DNA from: an uncultured Desulfosarcina sp.
GTDB lineage: Bacteria; Desulfobacterota; Desulfobacteria; Desulfobacterales; Desulfosarcinaceae
Direction of reading: 5' to 3'
Length of the DNA: 64,000 nucleotides
Assembly (NCBI GenBank): GCA_963674945.2
Contig: CAXXWQ010000003.1
Location: 1,760,001-1,824,000 of the forward strand
Part shown: one piece after another, positions 1-14,993 of the stretch
How positions within the stretch are numbered: position 1 is the stretch's first letter
Layout of the letters: every line of letters starts with the position of its first letter
Notes under the pieces: model-generated
Told to the model about the DNA's origin: nothing
Database searches by the model: none
The model's input: only the letters and a program-made list of their open reading frames with translations
Made by a program: the position numbers and the translations under genes

Positions 1-140
1 TCAAAGAGGTGATAACTAATTTCGAGGACCTAAGAAATACGCATCCGGCTCTATCGAATTGGTCCTTAAAAGGGTTGCTTACAGGACTCAGCGCTCCGAT
101 TCATCCCGGTGCGAAAAAGTTTTTTATGGAAGTTGAATAA
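1..140 (+). CDS. 3' end of a TAXI-family TRAP transporter solute-binding subunit (partial)
   Basis: Frame 3 reads KEVITNFEDLRNTHPALSNWSLKGLLTGLSAPIHPGAKKFFMEVE*. The HPA...P(I/L)HPGA tail is typical of TAXI receptors. Not in the ORF track because the start lies outside the window. Confidence 0.75.
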   Translation, partial: KEVITNFEDLRNTHPALSNWSLKGLLTGLSAPIHPGAKKFFMEVE

Positions 141-151
141 AACCGGCGATG

Positions 152-2110
152 CTAAGACCTGTTTTTACTTCGATCAAGGACGATTCTTACCGTTATCGCC
201 AATTTTTCAAGTGTGAATGGCTTATAAACAAACTCTTCGATACCGATCTCATCCGCTTTCTCCTTGCATATCCGATCGCTGTAGCCGGTACACAAAATAA
301 TCGGGATATCCGGTCGTATTTTCATGAGCTCCATGGCCAGCTTATCGCCGCTGATTTTCGGCATCGTCATGTCCGTGATGACCAGATCGAAATAGGCAGG
401 GTTGGATTTGAACTGCTCCAGCGCCTGCCGGCCGTCAATTTTTGTGGCCACCTCGTAACCCAACTTTTCCAACTGCGCCTTCCCCAGTTCAACAAGAATT
501 GTTTCATCGTCGACAAACAGAAGCCGTTCGTTACCGGTGGGTAGATTTTGTCTCTTTTCAACGTTTTCTTTTTTGTTTGTATGTTCAATTCTCGGAAAAT
601 AGACGGTAAACACACTCCCTTCATTTACTGTACTTTCCACCATGACCGCCCCAAAGTGACTTCTTACGATCCCATGAACGACGGAAAGCCCGAGCCCCGT
701 ACCTTCGCCTTTTTCTTTTGTGGTATAATAGGGTTCGAAGATCCGTTCTACCACAGACTCTTTGATGCCGTGCCCGGTATCGGCCACGACAAGCTTCATC
801 GCGGGGCCTGCATTCAGCTCTGCATGCGACAGTGCCATTTGTTCATCCACATCGACGGCGAAAAGGGATATGGTAAGAACCCCTCCATCCGCGCGCATGG
901 AATGGTACGCATTGGTGCAAAGGTTCATGACCACCTGATGGATCTGGGTCGGATCTCCCATAATGATACCATTTTCCAGGTGCTCTTTTATTTCGATCGA
1001 CGATGGTATGGATGAACGCAGCAAACCCAATGCTTCCATGACCACTGTTTTAAGATCGATCGGAATGAACTCTGATTCGGAGCGCCGACTGAAAGCAAGT
1101 ATCCGCCGAACGAGATCTGCGGCCCTAGTACTGGCTTTGAGCACTTCCAAGAGTCCTATTTCCGCTTCGCTTCCTTTGAGTACCGAAGTTCTCGCCAATT
1201 CAGAGTAACCGATAATGGCGGAAAGGATGTTATTAAAATCGTGTGCAATCCCTCCGGCAAGATTTCCCAAAGATTCAAGTTTTTGCGCCTGACGCAGTTG
1301 GTTTGTCAGATCTTTTTCTAATTTTTCCGACGCTATCTTTTGGGTGATATCTTCCGATAGCCCCAGCAGAAACAAAGGAGTGCCTTCTTCGTTCAGAATC
1401 GGTATTTTCTTTGTATGCAGTATCCGCACCCCTTTCGTTTTTGTCTTGATCGTCTCCACTGGTATCTCTAAAAGTTGTCGTGTAACAAGGGTATCCCGGT
1501 CTGTGGCCGTAAAAAAGTCGGCCTCCTCTTCGGTGAAAAGATCATGATCGGATTTGCCGATCAACGCTTCCCTGGAGATTCCCAACAACTCCTCGACTGC
1601 CTTGTTGATCCGTACAAAATGTAAATTTTTAGCATCTTTGATAAAGATCATATGAGGAATGTTCTCGATGATTGCCGTGAGAAACTCTTCCCTTTCCTTG
1701 AGAAGGTTTAGGTTCTGGATACGTTCACGCCGGATCTTTGCTTCTCGCAATTCCCGGTTGACGGCGGGGATCAAACGTTCCAGCTTGTCTTTCATCAGGT
1801 AATCATGAGCGCCTTCTTTCATGGCCTCGACGGCGACATCTTCTCCAACGGTTCCGGAGACAATGATAAAAGGGATTTCCAGGGCGTATCGCTTATAGAT
1901 CTCAAGGGCCTGTAAACCAGTAAAACTTGGCATGGAATAATCGGAGAGAATCAGATCCCATTGTTTTTCATTGAGCGCTTGAATCATGACGTCCGCATTT
2001 TGAACCCGCTCCCAGGTCAAATCAAAACCGCCCTTTCTCAGTTTTCGGATCAGGAAAACGGCGTCTTCTTCCGAGTCCTCCACCAGCAGAACGTTCAATG
2101 TCGGCTTCAT
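152..2110 (-). CDS. Hybrid sensor histidine kinase (REC-PAS-HisKA-HATPase-REC)
   Basis: N-terminal REC (LLVEDS, ILSDYSMP), PAS, H-box IAHDFNNIL, N-box VVMNLCTNA, G-boxes DTGHG and GTGLGLS, C-terminal REC (LFVDD, ITDMTMP). Confidence 0.93.
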   Translation of the reverse strand: MKPTLNVLLVEDSEEDAVFLIRKLRKGGFDLTWERVQNADVMIQALNEKQWDLILSDYSMPSFTGLQALEIYKRYALEIPFIIVSGTVGEDVAVEAMKEGAHDYLMKDKLERLIPAVNRELREAKIRRERIQNLNLLKEREEFLTAIIENIPHMIFIKDAKNLHFVRINKAVEELLGISREALIGKSDHDLFTEEEADFFTATDRDTLVTRQLLEIPVETIKTKTKGVRILHTKKIPILNEEGTPLFLLGLSEDITQKIASEKLEKDLTNQLRQAQKLESLGNLAGGIAHDFNNILSAIIGYSELARTSVLKGSEAEIGLLEVLKASTRAADLVRRILAFSRRSESEFIPIDLKTVVMEALGLLRSSIPSSIEIKEHLENGIIMGDPTQIHQVVMNLCTNAYHSMRADGGVLTISLFAVDVDEQMALSHAELNAGPAMKLVVADTGHGIKESVVERIFEPYYTTKEKGEGTGLGLSVVHGIVRSHFGAVMVESTVNEGSVFTVYFPRIEHTNKKENVEKRQNLPTGNERLLFVDDETILVELGKAQLEKLGYEVATKIDGRQALEQFKSNPAYFDLVITDMTMPKISGDKLAMELMKIRPDIPIILCTGYSDRICKEKADEIGIEEFVYKPFTLEKLAITVRIVLDRSKNRS

Positions 2111-2562
2111 CGTTTTATCTCCAGATGATCCGGCGTTTCATTCAATATCAGCCAGTAAAGCCCGAGCTTCCCGACGGTATCGATGAATTGCCCGAAATCC
2201 ACCGGCTTTTGAATGAAGCTGTTTGCACCCAGACGATAACTTTTGACAATATCGATTTCTTCCTTTGATGTGGTCAATACCACCACAGGCAAAATGGCGG
2301 TTCGCTGATTGGCCCGGATCTCCCGTAACACCTCATGACCGTCCAGTTTTGGCAATTTGAGATCGAGCAGAACAAGCTGGGGAAGATCGGGAAGGCCGCT
2401 GCCTTCAAATTCGCCACGGCCGAATAGGATATCCAAGGCCTCCACACCGTCCCTGGCCACCACGATATGGTTGCCGATCTTATTCTTCTTGAGCGCTCTA
2501 ATGGTCAGCGCTTCATCATTGGGATCATCTTCAACCAATAGAATCGTCTTTTCCTTCAACAT
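2107..2562 (-). CDS. Single-domain response regulator (Rcp1-like)
   Basis: ILLVEDD, LLDLKLPKLDG, LTTS, SYRLGANSFIQKPVDF. 4 bp overlap with the downstream kinase. Confidence 0.92.
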   Translation of the reverse strand: MLKEKTILLVEDDPNDEALTIRALKKNKIGNHIVVARDGVEALDILFGRGEFEGSGLPDLPQLVLLDLKLPKLDGHEVLREIRANQRTAILPVVVLTTSKEEIDIVKSYRLGANSFIQKPVDFGQFIDTVGKLGLYWLILNETPDHLEIKR

Positions 2563-2601
2563 CTTTCCCCCCTTGGAGATCGAACGGAATATGGTAAATG
2601 A

Positions 2602-4476
2602 TTATTCAATGATAATATAAAATGTGGCTCCTTTATCGATTTCACTTTCCGCCCATATGGTTCCGCCATGTCTGTTGACGATACGTTGCACGGTCGCAAG
2701 CCCGATCCCGGTTCCTTCGAATTCATCCTTGCCATGCAAACGCTGGAAGGCGCCGAATAGTTTATCCGCGTAGGCCATGTCGAACCCGGTACCGTTATCT
2801 TTGACAAAGAACACGGTTTTTCCCTTATGCCCCAATTTTTCAGCCGATACCGGGTCTACACAGTTGATCTCAATTTCCGCTCGATTACGAATACGGCTGA
2901 ACTTCCAAGCATTTCTCATGAGATTGTCCAGAACGATATGCAACAACCGCTGATCTGCCCGGACAAAAAGGTCGGGTGCGATGGTGAATATCACGTGGCG
3001 TTCCGGTTCGCCCTGGGTCAGATCGTCCGCGATTTCCCGGGCCATCATGGTCACGTCAACCGTGGTACGACGAAGTTCCCGGCGGCCGATTCTGGAGAGC
3101 ATGAGTATATCATCGATAAGACGGCCCATCAGCGAGCAGGCATTCCTGATCCGTTCGAGGTATGATTTGGCATCTGGATCCAATTGATCTTGGTAATCTT
3201 CCGCCAGAGCAAGACTGAATCCGTCGATGTGCCGTAAGGGAGCCCTGAGGTCATGGGATACGGAATAGGAGAAGGCTTCGAGTTCCTTGTTGGCATTTTC
3301 CAGTTGTGAAGTTCGTTGGCGGACACGCTGTTCCAGCTCTTCGTTCAGTTTTTGTATTTTTTCCTGGGCCTGTTTGTATTCGGTAATATCTTGAAAGATT
3401 GCAACCCTGCCGTAGAACTCGTGATTTTTTCCAATCATGGGACTGGAGTATCGTTGAAATGTCCGACCGTCCTTGAGACTGATCTGGTCACGGATCGTCA
3501 TACTGGAACTTGGGCGAAGTTTCTTCAGTTGCGCAGGGGAAACTTCCGTTGTAGCCATTTTGTCGTTTAGGGATTGCATATATTGTTCGCCTGACTTTGA
3601 GGCAACCACGTCGGCTGGTATCTCCCACATCTCGATAAAACGCCGGTTGACGGAAAGGATATTGTACCATTTGTCCAGCACGATAATGCCGTCAGGGGAA
3701 GTTTCCTGTTGGGTTTGAAGCCTGACATTCAACTCCATCAGCCCTTTGGTGTAATCATGGATTCGCATGAAAAGATCGTCCATTGCCGTTTTCACCGACC
3801 CGACCTCGCTGCTGATCCAGCCTTTGAGCACCGGCAATACCGCAATATCACCCGCCTCTTTATCGCGTAACGCTGTTGCCAATTGATGTAACGGTCGTAA
3901 CAGATGGATCAGAAGGCACCAGCAGATAAACAACATGACCATGATGGCTGCCGTAGCCATAAAAAAGCTGTTCATGACATCCGATTTTAATTGTTGATAA
4001 AAAGCCTTGCTTCCATAAAATTTGGCGATACCCAACAGCTCCTTGGAGGATCTATGGTACAAGGGGATTTCAACATCCAAATGACGATCTTCTCCATAAC
4101 CATCCCCGGATATTTGCCAACGAGCCACATCGAGCGAGCCTTTTTCCACCCGAAGGACGTCATAGTCGATGAAAAGCTCCACCCCTCGTAAGAGATGAGA
4201 TTGCGTGGCAGGATCGGTAAGCAGCAATACATCATCTATCATATGGATGATCGCACTGCGCTGAACGGTCGTTTCAGACAGTGCATTTGCAAGGCTCAGG
4301 GAGTGGGCCTGGGCCAGGGAATTAAGGTCGGACACCATTTCCATTTCAAGGCGCGGAGAGAGCACCATCAGCCAGAAAGAGACAAACACACCTTCAACAA
4401 GAAAGGCGGATAACACAAACATCAGTGTGATCCGGCCCCTCAGAGAGGAAAGGTTTTTATTCTCACTCTTCTTCAT
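2602..4476 (-). CDS. Membrane sensor histidine kinase (2 TM, periplasmic domain, PAS, HisKA, HATPase)
   Basis: Two hydrophobic helices, PAS (TSPDGIIVLD), H-box FSYSVSHDLRAPLR, and DNGTGF...FGAFQRLH...GTGIGLA, the kinase subfamily that pairs with Rcp1-like regulators. Confidence 0.92.
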   Translation of the reverse strand: MKKSENKNLSSLRGRITLMFVLSAFLVEGVFVSFWLMVLSPRLEMEMVSDLNSLAQAHSLSLANALSETTVQRSAIIHMIDDVLLLTDPATQSHLLRGVELFIDYDVLRVEKGSLDVARWQISGDGYGEDRHLDVEIPLYHRSSKELLGIAKFYGSKAFYQQLKSDVMNSFFMATAAIMVMLFICWCLLIHLLRPLHQLATALRDKEAGDIAVLPVLKGWISSEVGSVKTAMDDLFMRIHDYTKGLMELNVRLQTQQETSPDGIIVLDKWYNILSVNRRFIEMWEIPADVVASKSGEQYMQSLNDKMATTEVSPAQLKKLRPSSSMTIRDQISLKDGRTFQRYSSPMIGKNHEFYGRVAIFQDITEYKQAQEKIQKLNEELEQRVRQRTSQLENANKELEAFSYSVSHDLRAPLRHIDGFSLALAEDYQDQLDPDAKSYLERIRNACSLMGRLIDDILMLSRIGRRELRRTTVDVTMMAREIADDLTQGEPERHVIFTIAPDLFVRADQRLLHIVLDNLMRNAWKFSRIRNRAEIEINCVDPVSAEKLGHKGKTVFFVKDNGTGFDMAYADKLFGAFQRLHGKDEFEGTGIGLATVQRIVNRHGGTIWAESEIDKGATFYIIIE

Positions 4477-5101
4477 GGCGCATCGAAACTCTTAAAAAGA
4501 AAGATTTAATCTGAATATTGGCCGCTTTCAGCGCAGAAATATTCAGATAGGGTAGAACCCTGTCACTGATGTGCATGCCCCCCGAAACACCCCGTTCCAC
4601 ATCCCCCTCAAAAGGCGAAAACAAGATGCATCGATGCTCCCTGGCAAAAGCAATAATGGAATTGAGCCTATGGGACAACGGTTGCGTCAGAAAGATACCG
4701 GCGATCGTCTGGTCCTTGTAATATTGATCAAAAGACTGTTCGACTGCGATATCCACGCGTATGGGCAGTCCACGGATTCGTCCCACGGATGTAAGATGCG
4801 CAGCGAATTCTTTTGCCTTCTCCGGATTGTTCGCATGCAACAGAAGCAGGCACAGCTTGCCGTCCCGGCCTGTCTTATTCCGGATGTTCAAGTCTGCCGC
4901 CAATAGGCTGGGAAACAGGTCCAGCCCGGCCCTGCAACGCACCGCTTCACGTTCCGCACCATGGGAAAAATCACCGAACGGATGAAGGGTAAGAATGGAC
5001 GCCAACAAAAGGAGAATGGCAAACGACAATCTGTCATTTCGGGTTTGAACGCGCATCCTGTTCACCTTCTCAATTCCTGCATTTTCGGTCTCAAGGTTCA
5101 A
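4463..5101 (-). CDS. YfiR/HmsC (DUF4154)-like periplasmic protein
   Basis: Signal-like hydrophobic stretch, about 170 aa mature part, C-terminal YLNISALKAANIQIKSFFLRVS resembling the YfiR tail, and position between a TonB receptor and a sensor kinase with overlaps on both sides. Confidence 0.65.
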   Translation of the reverse strand: MNLETENAGIEKVNRMRVQTRNDRLSFAILLLLASILTLHPFGDFSHGAEREAVRCRAGLDLFPSLLAADLNIRNKTGRDGKLCLLLLHANNPEKAKEFAAHLTSVGRIRGLPIRVDIAVEQSFDQYYKDQTIAGIFLTQPLSHRLNSIIAFAREHRCILFSPFEGDVERGVSGGMHISDRVLPYLNISALKAANIQIKSFFLRVSMRHEEE

Positions 5102-7224
5102 AAATCATATGAAAGCTCGGCCCACCATGTTCTTCCCGGTTGGGGATAGTCCTCCGGATATGTGTTTATCGGCGCAGCATACCGTACGTCTTCATTAAAC
5201 ACGTTCTGTATGCCGGCTCTCAGTGCAAGTTTTTTTATAAAAAGATTGAATACGCTGCCGGTCACATCAATCGTATGGGATGCATCCGCTTTGCCTCTGG
5301 CGTCCTGCGGGTCCCTGTTCTGCTTTCCCACATATCGATAGTGTGCATTGAGAATCAGATTTCTGTGGGCCTGATAGGAAAGGCCAAGGTTGGCCAACCA
5401 GTTAGCCGTTCTCGGTATGGGTTCATCCGTGTCCTCGTCTTCGGTGTGTGAATAGGAAACATTGCCGTCCAGCTTCAGTGTGGAAAGAAGCGATTGTTCA
5501 AGTTCCAGTTCGGCGCCGGTTAGCCGGGCTCCGCCGGAATTAACCCAAATGTCACCCTCACGGACGATCACATCGTTCAGATTTGAATGAAAAAGAGTAA
5601 TTCGGCCCATGGTTGCAGTTCTGCGGTAGATATAGCCCAGTTCGAAATTCTCGCTGGTTTGTGGTTTGAGTTGCGTGTTGCCAAAATTGAAAACAGATCC
5701 GAGTTGATGATACAACTGCTGGAAGGATGGCGGCATGTAGGCCTGGGCGTATTGCACCTTGAAGATATGTGCGTCGGAGAGTCGCCATACCCCGGCCAGC
5801 CTGGGGCTGAGGCTGTCGTCCGTATCGTTGTAGCCGTCGAATCTCAAGCCGGCGGTGATATCAAAGGTGTCGGTTGCGGAAAACTCCTCCTGAACGACAA
5901 TGCTGTTAATGCGTCTTTCCCGGTCCTTTCCGATCAGGGCGCCGTCAAAATGTTGCATGCTGTTTGTCGGGCTTGGTTCGGTGGTGTCGATATCGAAATT
6001 GGCCTCCCGCCAGGTGTCGTCACCCTGGTATGTCTGGGAGATGGACCACTCGGCAAAAATTCTGTGCCGATTCCATCCCTCCCATGTCATGTTGATGGCC
6101 CCTTGATACCGATCCTCATCGTAGCTGAATGCCAAATCCATGCCGTTCGGGTAGGTGAAAGCCGGTGTCGTAAAACCGGGTGGATACAAGGTGACCCGAT
6201 CTGCGCTACTCTGATCATAGGACATATAGCCCAGCTTTGCATTGAACCATAGTGCGGAGCTGACGTTGACACGCTGATTGAGTTCAAGAATCCAGTATTT
6301 GCTTTCAAAAGCAATGCTATCTCTGTCCGGCGGCAAGGCATTGTCCCCACCGAAATAATCCCCATGGCCTGCATTCAGATACTGCGCGATGAACGAGAAA
6401 TTCTTAAAAGCCAGATCCATGATGGCAGCGTTCGTAAAACGGTCTTCATTGGCCGGACCGGGTGCGTTGGAGATATCTCCCTGGCCGATACAATACAATT
6501 TGTCCGTCCCGGACTGGGTGTCGGCGCCATCGGTGTCCCTGCCGCTCAGGTTCAGGCTCGCCCGAAAATCCTTGTCCGGCTTCGACCAGGAGGCAATCCC
6601 GCCCGCCCCATAGGTTTCATATCTTCCCGCCTCACCGTAAATGGAATTGCCTTCGGTTCGCGTAACGACATTGATTACACCGGTATTGGCATAACCACCA
6701 TGCACCGCAGACCCCGGCCCGCGGATTACCTCGATGCGCTCCACCTGCGCGATGGGAATACCGAGAAATGGGTAGAAGTTACCAGAAAATACATTGTTGA
6801 CCAGAACACCATTGAGCATGAACTGGTTGCTGGCATATCCAAAGGTCTCCGAAAGGCCTCTCACACTCACGGATATGGCGCCGTGACCTCCCGTGGTCAC
6901 CGCTATGCCCGGCACCAGGGATAGCGCTTGGGCCACATCCCTCATACCGCGGGTCAACAAATCCCTTCCCTCAAGCACGGTGACCATGCCGGGGACGTAA
7001 TCCGCGTTTAACTTTGATTTGGTGGCGATCTCGGTGTGTTTGTCCAGAACGGAAAGCAAACGGGCCAATTCGGCCTCGTCCTCCGAATTGTCAACCTGGG
7101 CTCGGTGCAAATTGGTATTATCTGCCAAGGCGGGTATAATGGAGAAAAACAAGATCAGCAGGACAAGGGATGACCGATGAAAAACATATCGTATTGATCT
7201 ATTTATCATTTTTTTGCTTACCAA
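5098..7224 (-). CDS. TonB-dependent outer membrane receptor
   Basis: Signal peptide, plug motifs (LSLVPG, VERIEVIRGPGSAVHG, GVINVVT), beta-barrel pattern, NVFN...PGRT...LSYDF with terminal Phe. The start may be the ATG at 7209. Confidence 0.93.
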   Translation of the reverse strand: MVSKKMINRSIRYVFHRSSLVLLILFFSIIPALADNTNLHRAQVDNSEDEAELARLLSVLDKHTEIATKSKLNADYVPGMVTVLEGRDLLTRGMRDVAQALSLVPGIAVTTGGHGAISVSVRGLSETFGYASNQFMLNGVLVNNVFSGNFYPFLGIPIAQVERIEVIRGPGSAVHGGYANTGVINVVTRTEGNSIYGEAGRYETYGAGGIASWSKPDKDFRASLNLSGRDTDGADTQSGTDKLYCIGQGDISNAPGPANEDRFTNAAIMDLAFKNFSFIAQYLNAGHGDYFGGDNALPPDRDSIAFESKYWILELNQRVNVSSALWFNAKLGYMSYDQSSADRVTLYPPGFTTPAFTYPNGMDLAFSYDEDRYQGAINMTWEGWNRHRIFAEWSISQTYQGDDTWREANFDIDTTEPSPTNSMQHFDGALIGKDRERRINSIVVQEEFSATDTFDITAGLRFDGYNDTDDSLSPRLAGVWRLSDAHIFKVQYAQAYMPPSFQQLYHQLGSVFNFGNTQLKPQTSENFELGYIYRRTATMGRITLFHSNLNDVIVREGDIWVNSGGARLTGAELELEQSLLSTLKLDGNVSYSHTEDEDTDEPIPRTANWLANLGLSYQAHRNLILNAHYRYVGKQNRDPQDARGKADASHTIDVTGSVFNLFIKKLALRAGIQNVFNEDVRYAAPINTYPEDYPQPGRTWWAELSYDF

Positions 7225-7618
7225 GCCTTGTTTTCTGTTTTTGGATAAATATTGCCGGCGAGCATGAAGATTGGACCGTACAAGAGCAAAAGGGCAGGAA
7301 GAGAAGGCGCGGTTGCCGAATTAGAAAAACCAAATTGCGCAGGAACAAGAAAAGCAGCCTGCCGGTAATTTGTGCAATGCGAGACGATTACAATGTTAAA
7401 TCGGTAAAATATCGTACCATACTTCCGTTGTGATGTTAACAGCAATGATGTATGTTGGGGTTCGTCACCGAATTTTTTCTGCTGTGACAGATCACGGCCG
7501 TCTTATGTAACGGGGCTTGTCCATTTTTCGTCGACAAATTAACTCTTGACTCTTTTTTCCATATGGTGATATTTGCCTTAGTTTTTATCGATCCATTTGG
7601 TTGGACCACTTGGGATCC

Positions 7619-7670
7619 ACTATCCTTGCTCCGGCCGACGGTCGGGGCTATGAAGCCACAAGGAGGAATC
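7619..7670 (+). promoter_or_regulatory. S6:S18 ribosomal protein autoregulatory leader RNA
   Basis: TCCTTG pairs with CAAGGA, which overlaps the rpsF SD (AGGAGG). Two internal hairpins, and GCCACAAGGAGG puts the CC just before the SD, as in S6:S18 leaders. Confidence 0.7.
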
Positions 7671-8177
7671 ATGAAGCGGTACGAAACAATTGTCATTATC
7701 GACCCTGACCTGTCCAAGGAGGCCGAAGCACCGATCCTTGAGCGGGTCAACGATTTGATCCCCCAGTACCAGGGAGTTCTCATCGAAACGGATGATTGGG
7801 GAACCAAGAAACTGGCCTACGACATTAAGAAAAAAAATCGGGGGCATTATGTCAGACTGGATTTTTGTGGTGATGGTGCACTGATCCAGGAGATGGAACG
7901 TTTTTTTCGGATCGACGATAAAATCATGAAATTCATGACGGTCCTTCTGGATGAAGATGCGGATATCGAGGCGATCCAGGCCGAGGTAGCCCAAAAAGAG
8001 GCCGAAGCGGTAACTTTGCCGGCCCAGGAAACGGAAGAAACCGTCGAGACCCAAGAGGACGCAGCGGCCAAGGAGGCCGACACCCAATCCCGGGAGACGG
8101 AAAAGGCCCCAGAGAAAGAGACATCCGTAGCGTCGACCGAAGAAGACACCCCCAACCGAGCCGATAAAGAGGAGTAA
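7671..8177 (+). CDS. rpsF: 30S ribosomal protein S6
   Basis: MKRYETIVIIDPDL...WGTKKLAYDIKK..RGHY. AGGAGG SD places the start at 7671 rather than 7563. Confidence 0.97.
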   Translation: MKRYETIVIIDPDLSKEAEAPILERVNDLIPQYQGVLIETDDWGTKKLAYDIKKKNRGHYVRLDFCGDGALIQEMERFFRIDDKIMKFMTVLLDEDADIEAIQAEVAQKEAEAVTLPAQETEETVETQEDAAAKEADTQSRETEKAPEKETSVASTEEDTPNRADKEE

Positions 8178-8180
8178 GAC

Positions 8181-8444
8181 ATGGCTATTACCAATAACCG
8201 TCCCCGAAAACGCAAAAGAAGAGTCTTCCACCGGCGTAAAGTATGCCGATTCTGTGCAGACCAAAGCCTCGCCATCGATTACAAAGATCCCAAAACCCTC
8301 AAGTACTTCATCACGGAGAGGGGAAAAATCATCCCGCGGAGAATTTCGGGAACCTGCGCCAAACATCAGCGGGCCTTGACCCATGCCATCAAACGGGCAC
8401 GAACCATTGCCCTTTTGCCCTATGTCGGGACCCATGACCTATAA
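8181..8444 (+). CDS. rpsR: 30S ribosomal protein S18 (Zn-binding form)
   Basis: [34 protein letters not shown]. Confidence 0.98.
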
Positions 8445-8496
8445 GCCTTTTAGGTACTGCGGGCAAAGTCGTGCGCCCCATCGTTAGGAGAGACGG

Positions 8497-9468
8497 ATGG
8501 TACCGTTGCCATTACAAAGTCGAGTATCGAAAGATATCGCTACGGGCGTAATGGCCACGTTGGCCATCTATTCCATGTCGATCTTCATGCCGGTAGTAGG
8601 CTTTTTCTTCGCCATCTTCACGCCCCTGCCCGTTCTTTTTTACCGAACCAAGCTGGGCAGGCGCCATGGCATGATCGTTCCAATTCTGGCCATCGCAGCA
8701 ATGGGCCTTTTATTGGGTGGCGTCACGGTGGATATGCTCTTTTTTTCCGGGCTCATGTTCCTGGGATTTGCCATGAGCGAGATGTTTGAAAAGGAGCTCT
8801 CCATAGAGTTTACCATTGCGGGTGCGTGTGCAATCGTTATCGGTGTCGGCCTGCTTGGCATTGTGCTGTACAGTATGATCAACCAAAAGGGGCTGTTCTC
8901 TCTGGTCTCCACCTACGTTGCAAACAATTTGGCGTTATCCCTGGAACTGTACAAGGAGATCGGTATGCCCCGGGAGACCATCGACGCCATATCCAATTCC
9001 CTGGATCGAATTCAATACGTTCTGGTCCGGATAATGCCCTCGATGGTGGTGGCATCCTTGCTCTTCGTCGCATGGACCAACCTGATCGCTGCAAAGCCGA
9101 TTATGCGGCGAAGAGGATTATCTTACCCGTCCTTCGGCCGTCTCAATCACTGGCGGGCACCGGAGTCGCTGGTGTGGGGCGTGATTGGCTGTGGCGTGAT
9201 CCTGCTTTTGCCCGTAACGGGCATCCGGCTGCTCGGCGTCAACGGACTGCTGGTGCTCCTCACCGTCTACTTCATCCAGGGCATTACCATCGTCTCCTTT
9301 TTTTTTGAAAAAAAAAAGGTACCGACCGTCGTTCGGGTGATACTGTACATGATCATCGCATTCCAGCAACTCATCCTGCTTGCCATCATATGCATGGGAC
9401 TTTTCGACATGTGGATTAATTTCAGAAAAATCAACGTCGATAAAAAAAAACCGGACCTGCCGTCATAA
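8497..9468 (+). CDS. DUF2232/YybS-family membrane protein
   Basis: Multi-TM protein between rpsR and rplI, with YFIQG and GLFDMWINFRK motifs. Confidence 0.85.
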   Translation: MVPLPLQSRVSKDIATGVMATLAIYSMSIFMPVVGFFFAIFTPLPVLFYRTKLGRRHGMIVPILAIAAMGLLLGGVTVDMLFFSGLMFLGFAMSEMFEKELSIEFTIAGACAIVIGVGLLGIVLYSMINQKGLFSLVSTYVANNLALSLELYKEIGMPRETIDAISNSLDRIQYVLVRIMPSMVVASLLFVAWTNLIAAKPIMRRRGLSYPSFGRLNHWRAPESLVWGVIGCGVILLLPVTGIRLLGVNGLLVLLTVYFIQGITIVSFFFEKKKVPTVVRVILYMIIAFQQLILLAIICMGLFDMWINFRKINVDKKKPDLPS

Positions 9469-13282: not shown

Positions 13283-14993
13283 CAGCAGTTTTGGCTGAAC
13301 GGGGTTCATCCCAGTTTTTGTGTGTTTGCTAGCGTATCGAAAATAAAATTTCGCGAAGCCAAACCCCCGCAAAATACGTAACAACTTGTTATAATTAGAG
13401 ATATTAAATCTAGACGCGTGCCGTTTTTATTGCTATAGATAACAGTAGGTTATACATGGCTATGAGGACGGCATGCACATCAAAAAACATCTGAGCTTCA
13501 GCACGATGAGAAAAGCCCTTTCGGCGATTTTCGAAAAGATCGATGATCCCCGGCAAAAGGGCAAGGTCGACTATTCGCTGCATGACTGTTTGATGAGTGC
13601 CCTGGCGATGATGTTTTTTCAAGACCCTTCCGTTCTCTCTTTTCAGCGGCGCATGCACGATCGCATGCAAGACAGTAATCTGAAAGCCATGTTTGCGGTT
13701 AAAGACATCCCCAGCGACAGTGCTTTGCGCCAGACGTTGGATAATATTCCAACCGAAGCGATTCATCCGGCATTTCCCTTTTTGCTACAATGCTTGCAGC
13801 GGGGCAAGTACCTGGATGCCTACAAGTTGGAAAGCGGGCACCATTTGATTGCATTGGACGGCTCACAGTATTTTTCTTCCGAAAAGATTCACTGTCCCAG
13901 TTGCCTGACTCATAAAGGCGCAAAAGGATCGACCCGTTACTCACATCAGATCTTACAGGCCGTTATGCTCAACCCGTACATGCGCCAGGTTTTGCCCCTG
14001 GCCCCGGAGCCCGTTGCCAATACCGACGGCACCACCAAGCAGGATTGCGAGATCAATGCGGGAAAACGGATCGTCGACAAAATCCGCCGTACTCACCCAA
14101 AACTGAAGATGATCATTACCGCCGATGGGCTATACTCCAAACAGCCCTTTATCGATGTGTTGAAAGATGCCCGCATGTCCTTTATCCTGGTGGCCAAACC
14201 CACCGATCACAAGTTGCTGTTCCAGTGGGTTGACGAAATCGATGGGCTCGGACAATGCGGTCACCTACAATTCACCGACGATAAAGGGCGCCGCCACGTT
14301 TATCGTTGGGTTAACCAGGTGCCTCTCAACGGTAGCCGCAATGCCGATCCGGTGAACTTTTTCGAGTATTGGCTGCACGTGGGGCAAAAGGCCACCTACC
14401 ACAACAGCTGGGTCACCGACCGTAAGGTGAGCAAGGCCAATGTCGTCGAATTGGTACGCGCCGGTCGGGCGCGCTGGAAAATCGAAAACGAAACGTTCAA
14501 CACTTTGAAGAATCAAGGCTACCATATCGAACACAACTTCGGTCACGGCCAACGTTATTTGTCGAACACCTTTTTTATTCTGAACCTGTTGGCTTTCTTC
14601 ATCCATCAAATCCTGGAACTGTGTGATCGTGGTTATCAGTATTGCCGGTCTAAATTCAGTTCCCGAAAAGAGTATTGGAACAACCTGCGTACTGGTATCC
14701 GGTTGATGCTCTTTCGTGACTTCGAACATCTTTTGCGCAATGTGGCCGACCCACCCGAAATCCGAGCACCGTAGCCATCTGTTCGCCCATTTGTCACCAC
14801 GGTTACCCACCACTGATCCCCAAACTTAGGCGGATAATGCCGACCTGTTGCCTTTTGGTAAATGGACTACCGCTATAACTCTGAGATAGTACCAATTTGT
14901 TGGAAAGCTATCCCAAAACCGCCTAAATAATGATAAGTCACAACCTGAAAAACCTACGAACCTGATCAAATGACTGTTCACACAGAATTACTG
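13283..14993 (+). mobile_element. Insertion sequence, 1711 bp, probably ISNCY (ISMae2-like group)
   Basis: Imperfect IRs CAGCAGTTTTGGCTGAAC / CAGTAATTCTGTGTGAAC (reverse complement), 9 bp TSD ATTCGAGGG at 13274-13282 and 14994-15002, and a second copy at 36470-38180. CAG ends, 9 bp DR and a single ORF fit my recollection of the ISMae2 group. Confidence 0.92.
13473..14774 (+). CDS. DDE transposase
   Basis: IALDGS, ITADGLY, GRARWKIENETFNTLK (D, D, E with R-W-x-I-E). Confidence 0.93.
   Translation: MHIKKHLSFSTMRKALSAIFEKIDDPRQKGKVDYSLHDCLMSALAMMFFQDPSVLSFQRRMHDRMQDSNLKAMFAVKDIPSDSALRQTLDNIPTEAIHPAFPFLLQCLQRGKYLDAYKLESGHHLIALDGSQYFSSEKIHCPSCLTHKGAKGSTRYSHQILQAVMLNPYMRQVLPLAPEPVANTDGTTKQDCEINAGKRIVDKIRRTHPKLKMIITADGLYSKQPFIDVLKDARMSFILVAKPTDHKLLFQWVDEIDGLGQCGHLQFTDDKGRRHVYRWVNQVPLNGSRNADPVNFFEYWLHVGQKATYHNSWVTDRKVSKANVVELVRAGRARWKIENETFNTLKNQGYHIEHNFGHGQRYLSNTFFILNLLAFFIHQILELCDRGYQYCRSKFSSRKEYWNNLRTGIRLMLFRDFEHLLRNVADPPEIRAP

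Follow-up and report, generated by a model that had tools for sequence, protein, structure and literature searches.

How does a TonB-dependent receptor of the outer membrane come to share an operon with a periplasmic protein and a membrane-bound histidine kinase, and could the three act as one signaling device? The question is raised by five genes at the start of a 64,000-nt stretch of DNA (the window; positions 1,760,001 to 1,824,000 of contig CAXXWQ010000003.1, assembly GCA_963674945.2) from an uncultured Desulfosarcina sp. TonB-dependent receptors are known to signal inward mainly through the route of FecR and extracytoplasmic function (ECF) sigma factors. The first three genes of the operon, which encode the receptor, a YfiR-like protein, and the sensor, form a conserved unit, and comparative evidence on a short helix at the receptor N terminus suggests that their products probably carry a signal through the envelope by switching partners. 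The features concerned are as follows, in window coordinates.

5098..7224, minus strand: gene 1, TonB-dependent receptor of 708 amino acids (aa), Pfam Plug and TonB barrel
7042..7071, minus strand: amphipathic N-terminal helix of the receptor, residues 52 to 61, from column conservation and presumably helical
7018..7035, minus strand: putative TonB box of the receptor, residues 64 to 69, right behind the helix, from position and consensus
4463..5101, minus strand: gene 2, periplasmic YfiR-like single-lobe protein of a divergent clade, 212 aa
2602..4476, minus strand: gene 3, membrane sensor histidine kinase of 624 aa, weak PAS, HisKA, and HATPase_c by Pfam
2107..2562, minus strand: gene 4, single-domain receiver REC of 151 aa, D67 and K119, Pfam REC
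152..2110, minus strand: gene 5, cytoplasmic hybrid kinase of 652 aa, REC-PAS-HisKA-HATPase_c-REC by Pfam, D57, H290, and D580

The five co-oriented genes and their three overlaps of 4 nt (5098-5101), 14 nt (4463-4476), and 4 nt (2107-2110) lie where a preliminary description of this DNA had placed them; the junction between the kinase and REC genes is a 39-nt gap. That description had also claimed an operon with no DNA-binding output and with no FecR, sigma, TonB, or ATP-binding cassette (ABC) genes beside it, and this is borne out: Pfam found no DNA-binding domain among the five proteins, and no TonB, ExbBD, FecR, ABC, or sigma gene adjoins the operon in its flanks. None of the five genes matched an OmpA-type family in Pfam. 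The phospho-sites H408 of the kinase, D67 of REC, and D57, H290, and D580 of the hybrid kinase are all present.

A conserved unit of three genes

The locus survey was anchored on gene 2 and covered the best 80 of 164 confirmed relatives. A receptor gene lies upstream of the YfiR-like gene in 72 of these 80 loci, directly in 60 and one gene away in 12, and downstream in 1; 2 other loci stop at a contig edge, and L021 is cut within an inserted gene. A homologue of the N-terminal sensor half of the kinase lies directly downstream of the YfiR-like gene in 71 loci, and the remaining 9 comprise 5 without room for it and 4 that differ. Because the receptor and the sensor N terminus recur across the 80 loci, the arrangement in the window is not due to chance, and the conserved co-occurrence that the preliminary description had expected of a neighborhood survey is present. 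The three-gene unit is spread over Thermodesulfobacteriota, Pseudomonadota, and one Zixibacteria record.

The conserved unit consists of genes 1 to 3, and genes 4 and 5 are not conserved. No single-domain REC with at least 42% identity to gene 4 occurs in the 80 loci (best match, 65 bits), and genes 4 and 5 are therefore taken to be a local output, which is the likely role of the hybrid kinase. The relay of five genes proposed earlier is thus retained for its first three members and given up for the REC and the hybrid kinase. No TonB, ExbB, or ExbD was matched in the 1.1 Mb of the 80 loci with the proteins of this genome as queries, a search that distant copies could escape, and the transport-type matches there are just 7 generic ABC ATPases in 6 loci. 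Four TonB_C genes are found elsewhere in this genome.

In L020 (6891-8831) and 11 other Rhodocyclales loci, a gene of approximately 646 aa stands between the receptor and YfiR-like genes. In the one copy that was scanned, a carotenoid-biosynthesis membrane domain is combined with CrtC/lipocalin domains, a possible hint of a lipophilic ligand in this one lineage.

The receptor and its N-terminal helix

The receptor has a likely signal peptide (approximately residues 1 to 34, by eye) and a barrel ending in Phe, and it matches the Pfam plug (E = 7.6e-18, 65 bits; cutoff, 23.9) and barrel (E = 2.1e-41, 144 bits; cutoff, 27), both of which look intact. Pfam matched no folded N-terminal signaling domain, and only about 30 residues stand ahead of the putative TonB box. 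Within this short segment, hydrophobic residues are conserved across 50 receptors at positions 53, 56, 57, and 60, i.e., with the spacing i, i+3, i+4, and i+7. Residues 64 to 69, which we take to be the putative TonB box from their position and the consensus, include a T-x-[IL]-A-T segment in which T64 (50 of 50), A67 (49 of 50), and T68 (49 of 50) are conserved, and they align with a VVT-type segment in the ordinary receptors of the same genome. Helix and plug are separated by only a short linker, an almost direct connection.

Of 56 receptors encoded next to this YfiR-like clade, 51 show the strict helix pattern, versus 0 of 32 other receptors, with the pattern defined on the same sequences in which it was counted; the 32 include 9 ordinary receptors of this genome, all 9 of which lack it. 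A reverse search anchored on the receptor, in which 2 candidates were scored per genome, gave 30 loci. The N terminus of this clade is found in 12 of them, which include the window and overlap the first locus set, and a YfiR-like gene lies downstream in 12 of 12. All 4 receptors that adjoin canonical YfiR-like genes, and a fifth without such a neighbor, have a SLEEL segment in place of this helix. This distribution suggests residues 52 to 61 as a candidate docking element for the YfiR-like protein. Distance matrices of the three genes are also correlated (Pearson, 0.92 to 0.93; Spearman, 0.58 to 0.69), which we did not count toward binding because kin share such correlations.

The helix and the periplasmic partner

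A Trp-containing helix is carried by the receptor in 11 of the 30 reverse-search loci, none of which has a YfiR-like neighbor. In a tree of plug and barrel sequences with 88 rows, from which six of the 30 loci (the window or near-duplicates) and one short receptor of the genome were left out, seven Trp-helix receptors fall inside the barrel clade of the window and others far outside it. The approximately unbiased (AU) test rejects a single clade for the Trp-helix barrels (p = 1.4e-76, 9 versus 20 rows); it was run on 29 chosen rows with the helix and box columns excluded, and the group was defined by motif after the first tree had been seen. These barrels span four groups with 21 to 28% identity between groups, and two of those in the clade of the window are 38 to 42% identical to this clade versus 26 to 28% to the ones outside it.

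The neighbors of the Trp-helix receptors, where present, are proteins of one two-lobed PF04392 subfamily together with a related HAMP sensor that is either a kinase or a chemoreceptor (MCP). The four PF04392 neighbors compared are 44 to 60% identical to each other versus 20 to 31% to other PF04392 neighbors, and all 10 receptors near that subfamily carry the Trp helix. The subfamily is encoded in 26 of 401 genomes, with 11 of 11 among those that have a Trp-helix receptor by the reverse search and 0 of 10 among those that have only the module of this clade; in five genomes it is encoded elsewhere, with no such gene in the stretch around the receptor. Another 19 regions holding the subfamily include 6 with a receptor, and all 6 receptors carry the Trp helix amid varied gene orders and on barrels 21 to 26% identical between groups. 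By these comparisons, the receptor helix appears to follow the type of its periplasmic partner and not the ancestry of the barrel.

The sister cassette of L153, L154, L161, L162, L165 to L171, and L177, in which a receptor with a different helix is combined with a two-lobed PF04392 protein and with a kinase or MCP sensor that has a HAMP domain, could be a finding of its own, and some copies hold a second binding protein. Some Trp-helix or related receptors adjoin acyltransferase/condensation-like genes or genes resembling polyketide synthases and nonribosomal peptide synthetases (L158:10037-11362, by a PapA_C match; L145 and L161:1-8666, by eye).

Gene 2 is a divergent YfiR-like protein

Gene 2 has a likely signal peptide to approximately residue 48. 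Its relatives were examined through 120 listed homologues of 234 found, 114 of which were aligned. Gene 2 itself matched no Pfam family at E ≤ 0.1, PF13689 (YfiR/HmsC-like) included, and no NCBIfam model, and 47 of the 114 homologues matched PF13689 weakly at E ≤ 0.01 (best, 3.1e-9). By HHalign, the profile of the gene 2 family aligns with that of a canonical TOL_0243-like set from the same phylum (probability = 95.1, E = 3.3e-8, 127 columns); mismatched profile pairs used as controls scored below 1.

The AlphaFold2 model of gene 2 has a predicted local distance difference test (pLDDT) score of 90.6. Its best structural match in Foldseek is RmSBP of Rhodothermus marinus (E = 1.9e-6), and the template modeling (TM) score to Pseudomonas aeruginosa YfiR (4zhu) is 0.73 to 0.76, normalized by target length. 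VIA-align superposes the model on YfiR with a Z-score of 12.6 over 144 residues (root mean square deviation = 3.4), in a near tie with RmSBP (13.0), 3lft (12.9), and 6hni (12.7), and the next chain follows at 8.9. Since 3lft and 6hni are of the two-lobed PF04392 amino-acid-binding type, the predicted fold of gene 2 corresponds to one such lobe. When the YfiR-like profile was aligned by HHalign with 8 two-lobed binding proteins, no significant similarity emerged (probability = 0.8), so the link between the YfiR-like and two-lobed proteins is a structural one. A sequence search of solved structures with gene 2 or its profile returned nothing, and weak beta-lactamase matches were rejected.

The four conserved cysteines of YfiR, which serve redox input, are not kept among the 114 homologues of the gene 2 clade, and the cysteines of the window protein at positions 56, 84, and 158 occur in 1, 1, and 2 of them, respectively. 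Gene 2 is therefore described as YfiR-like by predicted fold and profile homology, but divergent; the earlier assignment to YfiR stands on these two grounds, and a direct PF13689 match was not obtained. The clade comprises 302 clusters (50% identity) at E ≤ 1e-30 and is patchy, with 15 of 401 genomes of the class having it and 0 of 7 other genomes of the genus among those searched.

A search for natural fusions, which scored the 8,000 best candidates, turned up 8 longer proteins, of which six contain DUF3313, and a seventh (P0121) is of the same size as these, without a Pfam record. In the receptor-less loci L026 (6667-9471) and L034 (3-2736), the YfiR-like domain is likewise fused behind DUF3313 (compare P0121 to P0127), which may be an alternative input there; in L026, a serpin gene (Pfam) lies upstream of the fusion. 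An apparent fusion of receptor and YfiR-like protein (P0128) was rejected as a likely frameshift artifact: it is a singleton with an internal signal peptide, and the C-terminal strand of its barrel is replaced by sequence that looks out of frame.

The sensor and its outputs

The kinase takes the order of a transmembrane segment, a periplasmic domain (approximately 3967-4365), a second transmembrane segment, a weak HAMP (E = 0.032), PAS, HisKA with H408, and HATPase; the two transmembrane segments were read off the sequence and the model. CHASE8 (PF17152) is matched by 0 of 50 sensors of this clade, HHalign of the sensor domain against canonical CHASE8 sensors gave probabilities of 5.6 and 0.3, and the YfiN-type AAVVF motif is found in 0 of 50 sensors here versus 17 of 30 canonical ones. 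The model of the periplasmic domain is of moderate quality (pLDDT = 72.8). Foldseek ranks WalK and TlpA as its best matches, at E = 1e-4 to 7e-4 but low TM scores, and its language-model neighbors include CHASE8, LapD/MoxY, and CHASE5 clusters (feature similarity, 0.97). We tentatively read the domain as a predicted Cache/PAS-like fold, in a family separate from CHASE8.

The outputs attached to this domain vary. Among 32 chosen sensors scanned with Pfam, 23 are kinases, one of them with an added GGDEF, and 9 have GGDEF in place of a kinase, either alone or together with EAL. A rough motif count over all 71 sensors gave 47 kinases, 20 with GGDEF, 1 with both, and 3 unclassified. The earlier view that a kinase had simply replaced the cyclase is therefore abandoned, given the 9 kinase-free sensors. 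The sensor of the nearest relative is approximately 55% identical over the first 250 residues and clearly less similar in the kinase core.

A periplasmic CxxC motif occurs in 38 of 50 sensors; the window protein and its closest relatives do not have it.

Proposed partner switching and its alternatives

The same conserved hydrophobic surface of YfiR serves YfiB and, as genetics indicates, YfiN, and N-terminal residues of YfiB insert into a pocket of YfiR, according to the available portions of two reports (PMC4655355, PMC4887326). By analogy, a short amphipathic helix beside a putative TonB box is well placed for a YfiB-like role and could be moved when TonB engages the box. The YfiR-like protein would bind either this helix or the periplasmic domain of the sensor, in competition. 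An outside ligand would bind the barrel and plug, TonB engaging the box would change the exposure of the helix, and the YfiR-like protein would then move between receptor and sensor and so switch the kinase. Capture at the outer membrane would most likely relieve repression, as in YfiB-YfiR-YfiN. In the window, phosphate would go from H408 to two receivers, the single-domain REC and the N-terminal REC of the hybrid kinase; the hybrid kinase would in turn relay to targets whose genes lie elsewhere. The barrel, which seems to be exchangeable, would determine ligand specificity, and the receptor would be a sensor rather than an importer.

A broader statement, which we put forward tentatively and as a whole with a little less than even confidence, is that a wide class of TonB-dependent receptors may be dedicated signaling receptors whose N-terminal helix, 10 residues long, serves as an address label. 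Every type of helix would dock one adaptor family (divergent YfiR-like, canonical YfiR-like, or two-lobed PF04392), the pull of TonB on the adjacent box would toggle the grip between helix and adaptor to control kinases, cyclases, or chemoreceptors, and barrels and outputs would be interchangeable around the core of helix, adaptor, and sensor, giving a second, sigma-independent route of TonB-dependent signaling.

Several observations weigh against partner switching, the evidence for which is all comparative. The genomes are related, so the counts overstate independence. The binding protein lies upstream of the receptor 5' end in 3 of the first 4 loci, and a gene adjoining that end could carry the helix along by linkage; 13 of the 19 further binding-protein regions have no receptor in the surrounding stretch. 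Relatedness and linkage weaken the match between helix and partner but do not remove it. As neither CHASE8 homology nor the YfiN-type motif was found, a YfiN-like binding mode can be assumed only tentatively. The sister receptors are paired with two-lobed proteins that could bind an imported ligand, and transport is possible because the plug and barrel look intact. Finally, 4 of the 80 loci (L026; L034, with just 2.3 kb of upstream sequence covered; L050; and L071) hold the YfiR-like and sensor genes with no receptor in the covered stretch, so this pair can exist without one.

The receptor-less loci would fit an arrangement with no physical link, in which the YfiR-like protein and the sensor form a self-contained pair that responds to some other periplasmic cue and regulates an ordinary importer encoded on the same transcript. 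Pairs of YfiR and sensor working without an outer-membrane partner were predicted by Malone 2012 (PMC3375315, available portion), and the CxxC of most sensors, though not of that in the window, could be an independent input. We consider this arrangement improbable, since it leaves unexplained both a helix absent from the 9 ordinary receptors of the genome and the match of helix and partner across unrelated barrels, including the five genomes in which the PF04392 gene is unlinked; in addition, the operon has no DNA-binding output to regulate the receptor gene.

The pairing of the sister receptors with complete two-lobed binding proteins and a kinase or MCP favors another alternative, in which the receptor imports a small ligand and the periplasmic protein, having bound it, either presents it to the sensor or lets go of the sensor, with the helix only tethering that protein near the pore. 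LuxP-LuxQ and the chitin-binding protein with ChiS are precedents for such sensing. The resemblance of gene 2 to one PF04392 lobe and the intact plug and barrel point the same way, as does the binding of vitamin B6 and Trp by YfiR; the affinities reported for these are, however, only about 10 mM (PMC4887326, available portion). Two-lobed proteins close on their ligand, which a single lobe is unable to do, to judge from the accessible text of PMC10805632, and no inner-membrane uptake genes adjoin the operon, the few ABC ATPases in the 80 loci being generic. Import followed by sensing is thus unlikely here, while deserving more weight than the unlinked arrangement.

A third alternative bears on the geometry of the complex: a standing bridge of receptor, YfiR-like protein, and sensor could report outer-membrane integrity, spacing, or TonB energization and not a chemical ligand. 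YfiB signaling depends on linker length and envelope geometry (PMC3375315, available portion), and the helix in the window receptor is tied closely to the plug. On the other hand, one helix and partner appear to be combined with barrels that have been exchanged or have diverged, a pattern that changing ligand specificity fits better, and we regard such a gauge as highly improbable.

If partner switching holds, this widespread cassette would provide a second route of TonB-dependent signaling, to phosphorelays, cyclic di-GMP, and chemotaxis, and would explain what replaces YfiB in the many YfiR-sensor pairs found without it by Malone 2012 (PMC3375315, available portion). The match of helix and partner makes the mechanism directly testable, with built-in specificity controls. 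Should the core prove modular, engineered sensors for molecules that need help to pass the outer membrane could be based on it.

Comparison with known systems

The architecture itself was known before: the window unit is a divergent form of a catalogued, apparently untested cassette that three NCBIfam models describe, NF053590 (TOL_0244 TonB-dependent receptor), NF053591 (TOL_0243 YfiR-like), and NF053592 (sensor kinase, YfiR-like protein-associated), with cutoffs of 645, 125, and 194 bits. Both groups have the gene order of receptor, YfiR-like protein, and membrane sensor, their YfiR-like proteins are homologous by profile, and in the receptors of both, the putative TonB box is preceded by a short, helix-like hydrophobic stretch. 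They differ in that the window receptor scores 78 bits against the cutoff of 645, gene 2 and the sensor have no match, the helix is not SLEEL, the barrel belongs to another clade, and the sensor domain is not CHASE8. What sets the window unit apart, as read from sequence comparison, is the divergent clade and, as the new result, a receptor helix that appears to track partner type rather than barrel ancestry. The claim of an uncharacterized system accordingly keeps its force for a clade beyond the NCBIfam models and loses it for the architecture, which is catalogued, and for YfiR with a kinase and no YfiB, which is published. Our literature search, in which subscription journals were thinly covered, found no experimental study of either group and none on the pairing of receptor and YfiR.

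This genome also encodes canonical copies, which score 609 to 642, 113 to 126, and 176 bits against NF053590, NF053591, and NF053592, respectively. Each of its three canonical YfiR-like genes lies just behind a receptor near the NF053590 cutoff, and two are then followed by CHASE8 kinases. These modules (G000:C1:239418-241995, C4:486322-494047, and C3:2210223-2216269; L089 to L091) include one with two tandem receptors and two with CHASE8 hybrid kinases, and the C1 copy has no sensor behind it. At L152:4256-11295 (G000:C3:289256-296295), a canonical-type receptor with a SLEDL segment and no adjacent YfiR-like gene faces, in convergent orientation, a CHASE8 hybrid kinase and a gene of the REC-GGDEF-EAL type; speculatively, its partner in trans could be the YfiR-like protein of the C1 copy, which has no sensor behind it.

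Similar to YfiBNR and HmsCDE, the window unit combines a YfiR fold, a layout across outer membrane, periplasm, and inner membrane, and modular outputs. Unlike YfiBNR, it has a TonB-dependent barrel in place of the Pal-like lipoprotein YfiB, a kinase output, and neither the conserved YfiR cysteines, an AAVVF-type motif, nor a CHASE8 match. YfiR with kinase outputs and no YfiB, including in Desulfobacterium, was reported by Malone 2012, the available portion of which does not mention TonB (PMC3375315). RmSBP (PDB accession numbers 5Z6V and 6K1X), the best structural match to gene 2, is likewise a single lobe, although its identity to gene 2 is 13 to 15%. It is encoded near chemoreceptor (MCP) genes and is of unknown function, and TonB receptors and YfiR are not mentioned in the accessible text of its report (PMC10805632).

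In FecA-FecR-FecI, the periplasmic N-terminal extension of a TonB-dependent receptor transmits the signal inward. The window receptor also has an N-terminal extension, but this is a helix of approximately 10 residues and not a folded signaling domain, the flanks contain neither FecR nor sigma genes, and a soluble periplasmic protein with a kinase or cyclase stands in place of the anti-sigma and ECF sigma factors.

Surroundings of the operon

The closest named relatives of the locus are Desulfobacterales. Rfam gave no match within positions 1 to 9000, and scans for promoters and terminators gave about what chance predicts (9 versus 8.4 and 12 versus 9.0, respectively). A Fur-box scan with the Escherichia coli consensus was uninformative, the ordinary receptors of the genome likewise being without matches. 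The operon is flanked by a divergent rpsF (Ribosomal_S6, Pfam) and a convergent binding-protein-like gene. The latter is an open reading frame of 324 aa (L001:14166-15140; approximately 1-140 in the window, plus strand) that resembles, by eye, a TAXI/TRAP-type periplasmic binding protein. On the other side, behind an rpsF-rplI-dnaB-hflX-like block, an open reading frame of 433 aa at window positions 13473-14774 (plus strand) is transposase-like by eye.

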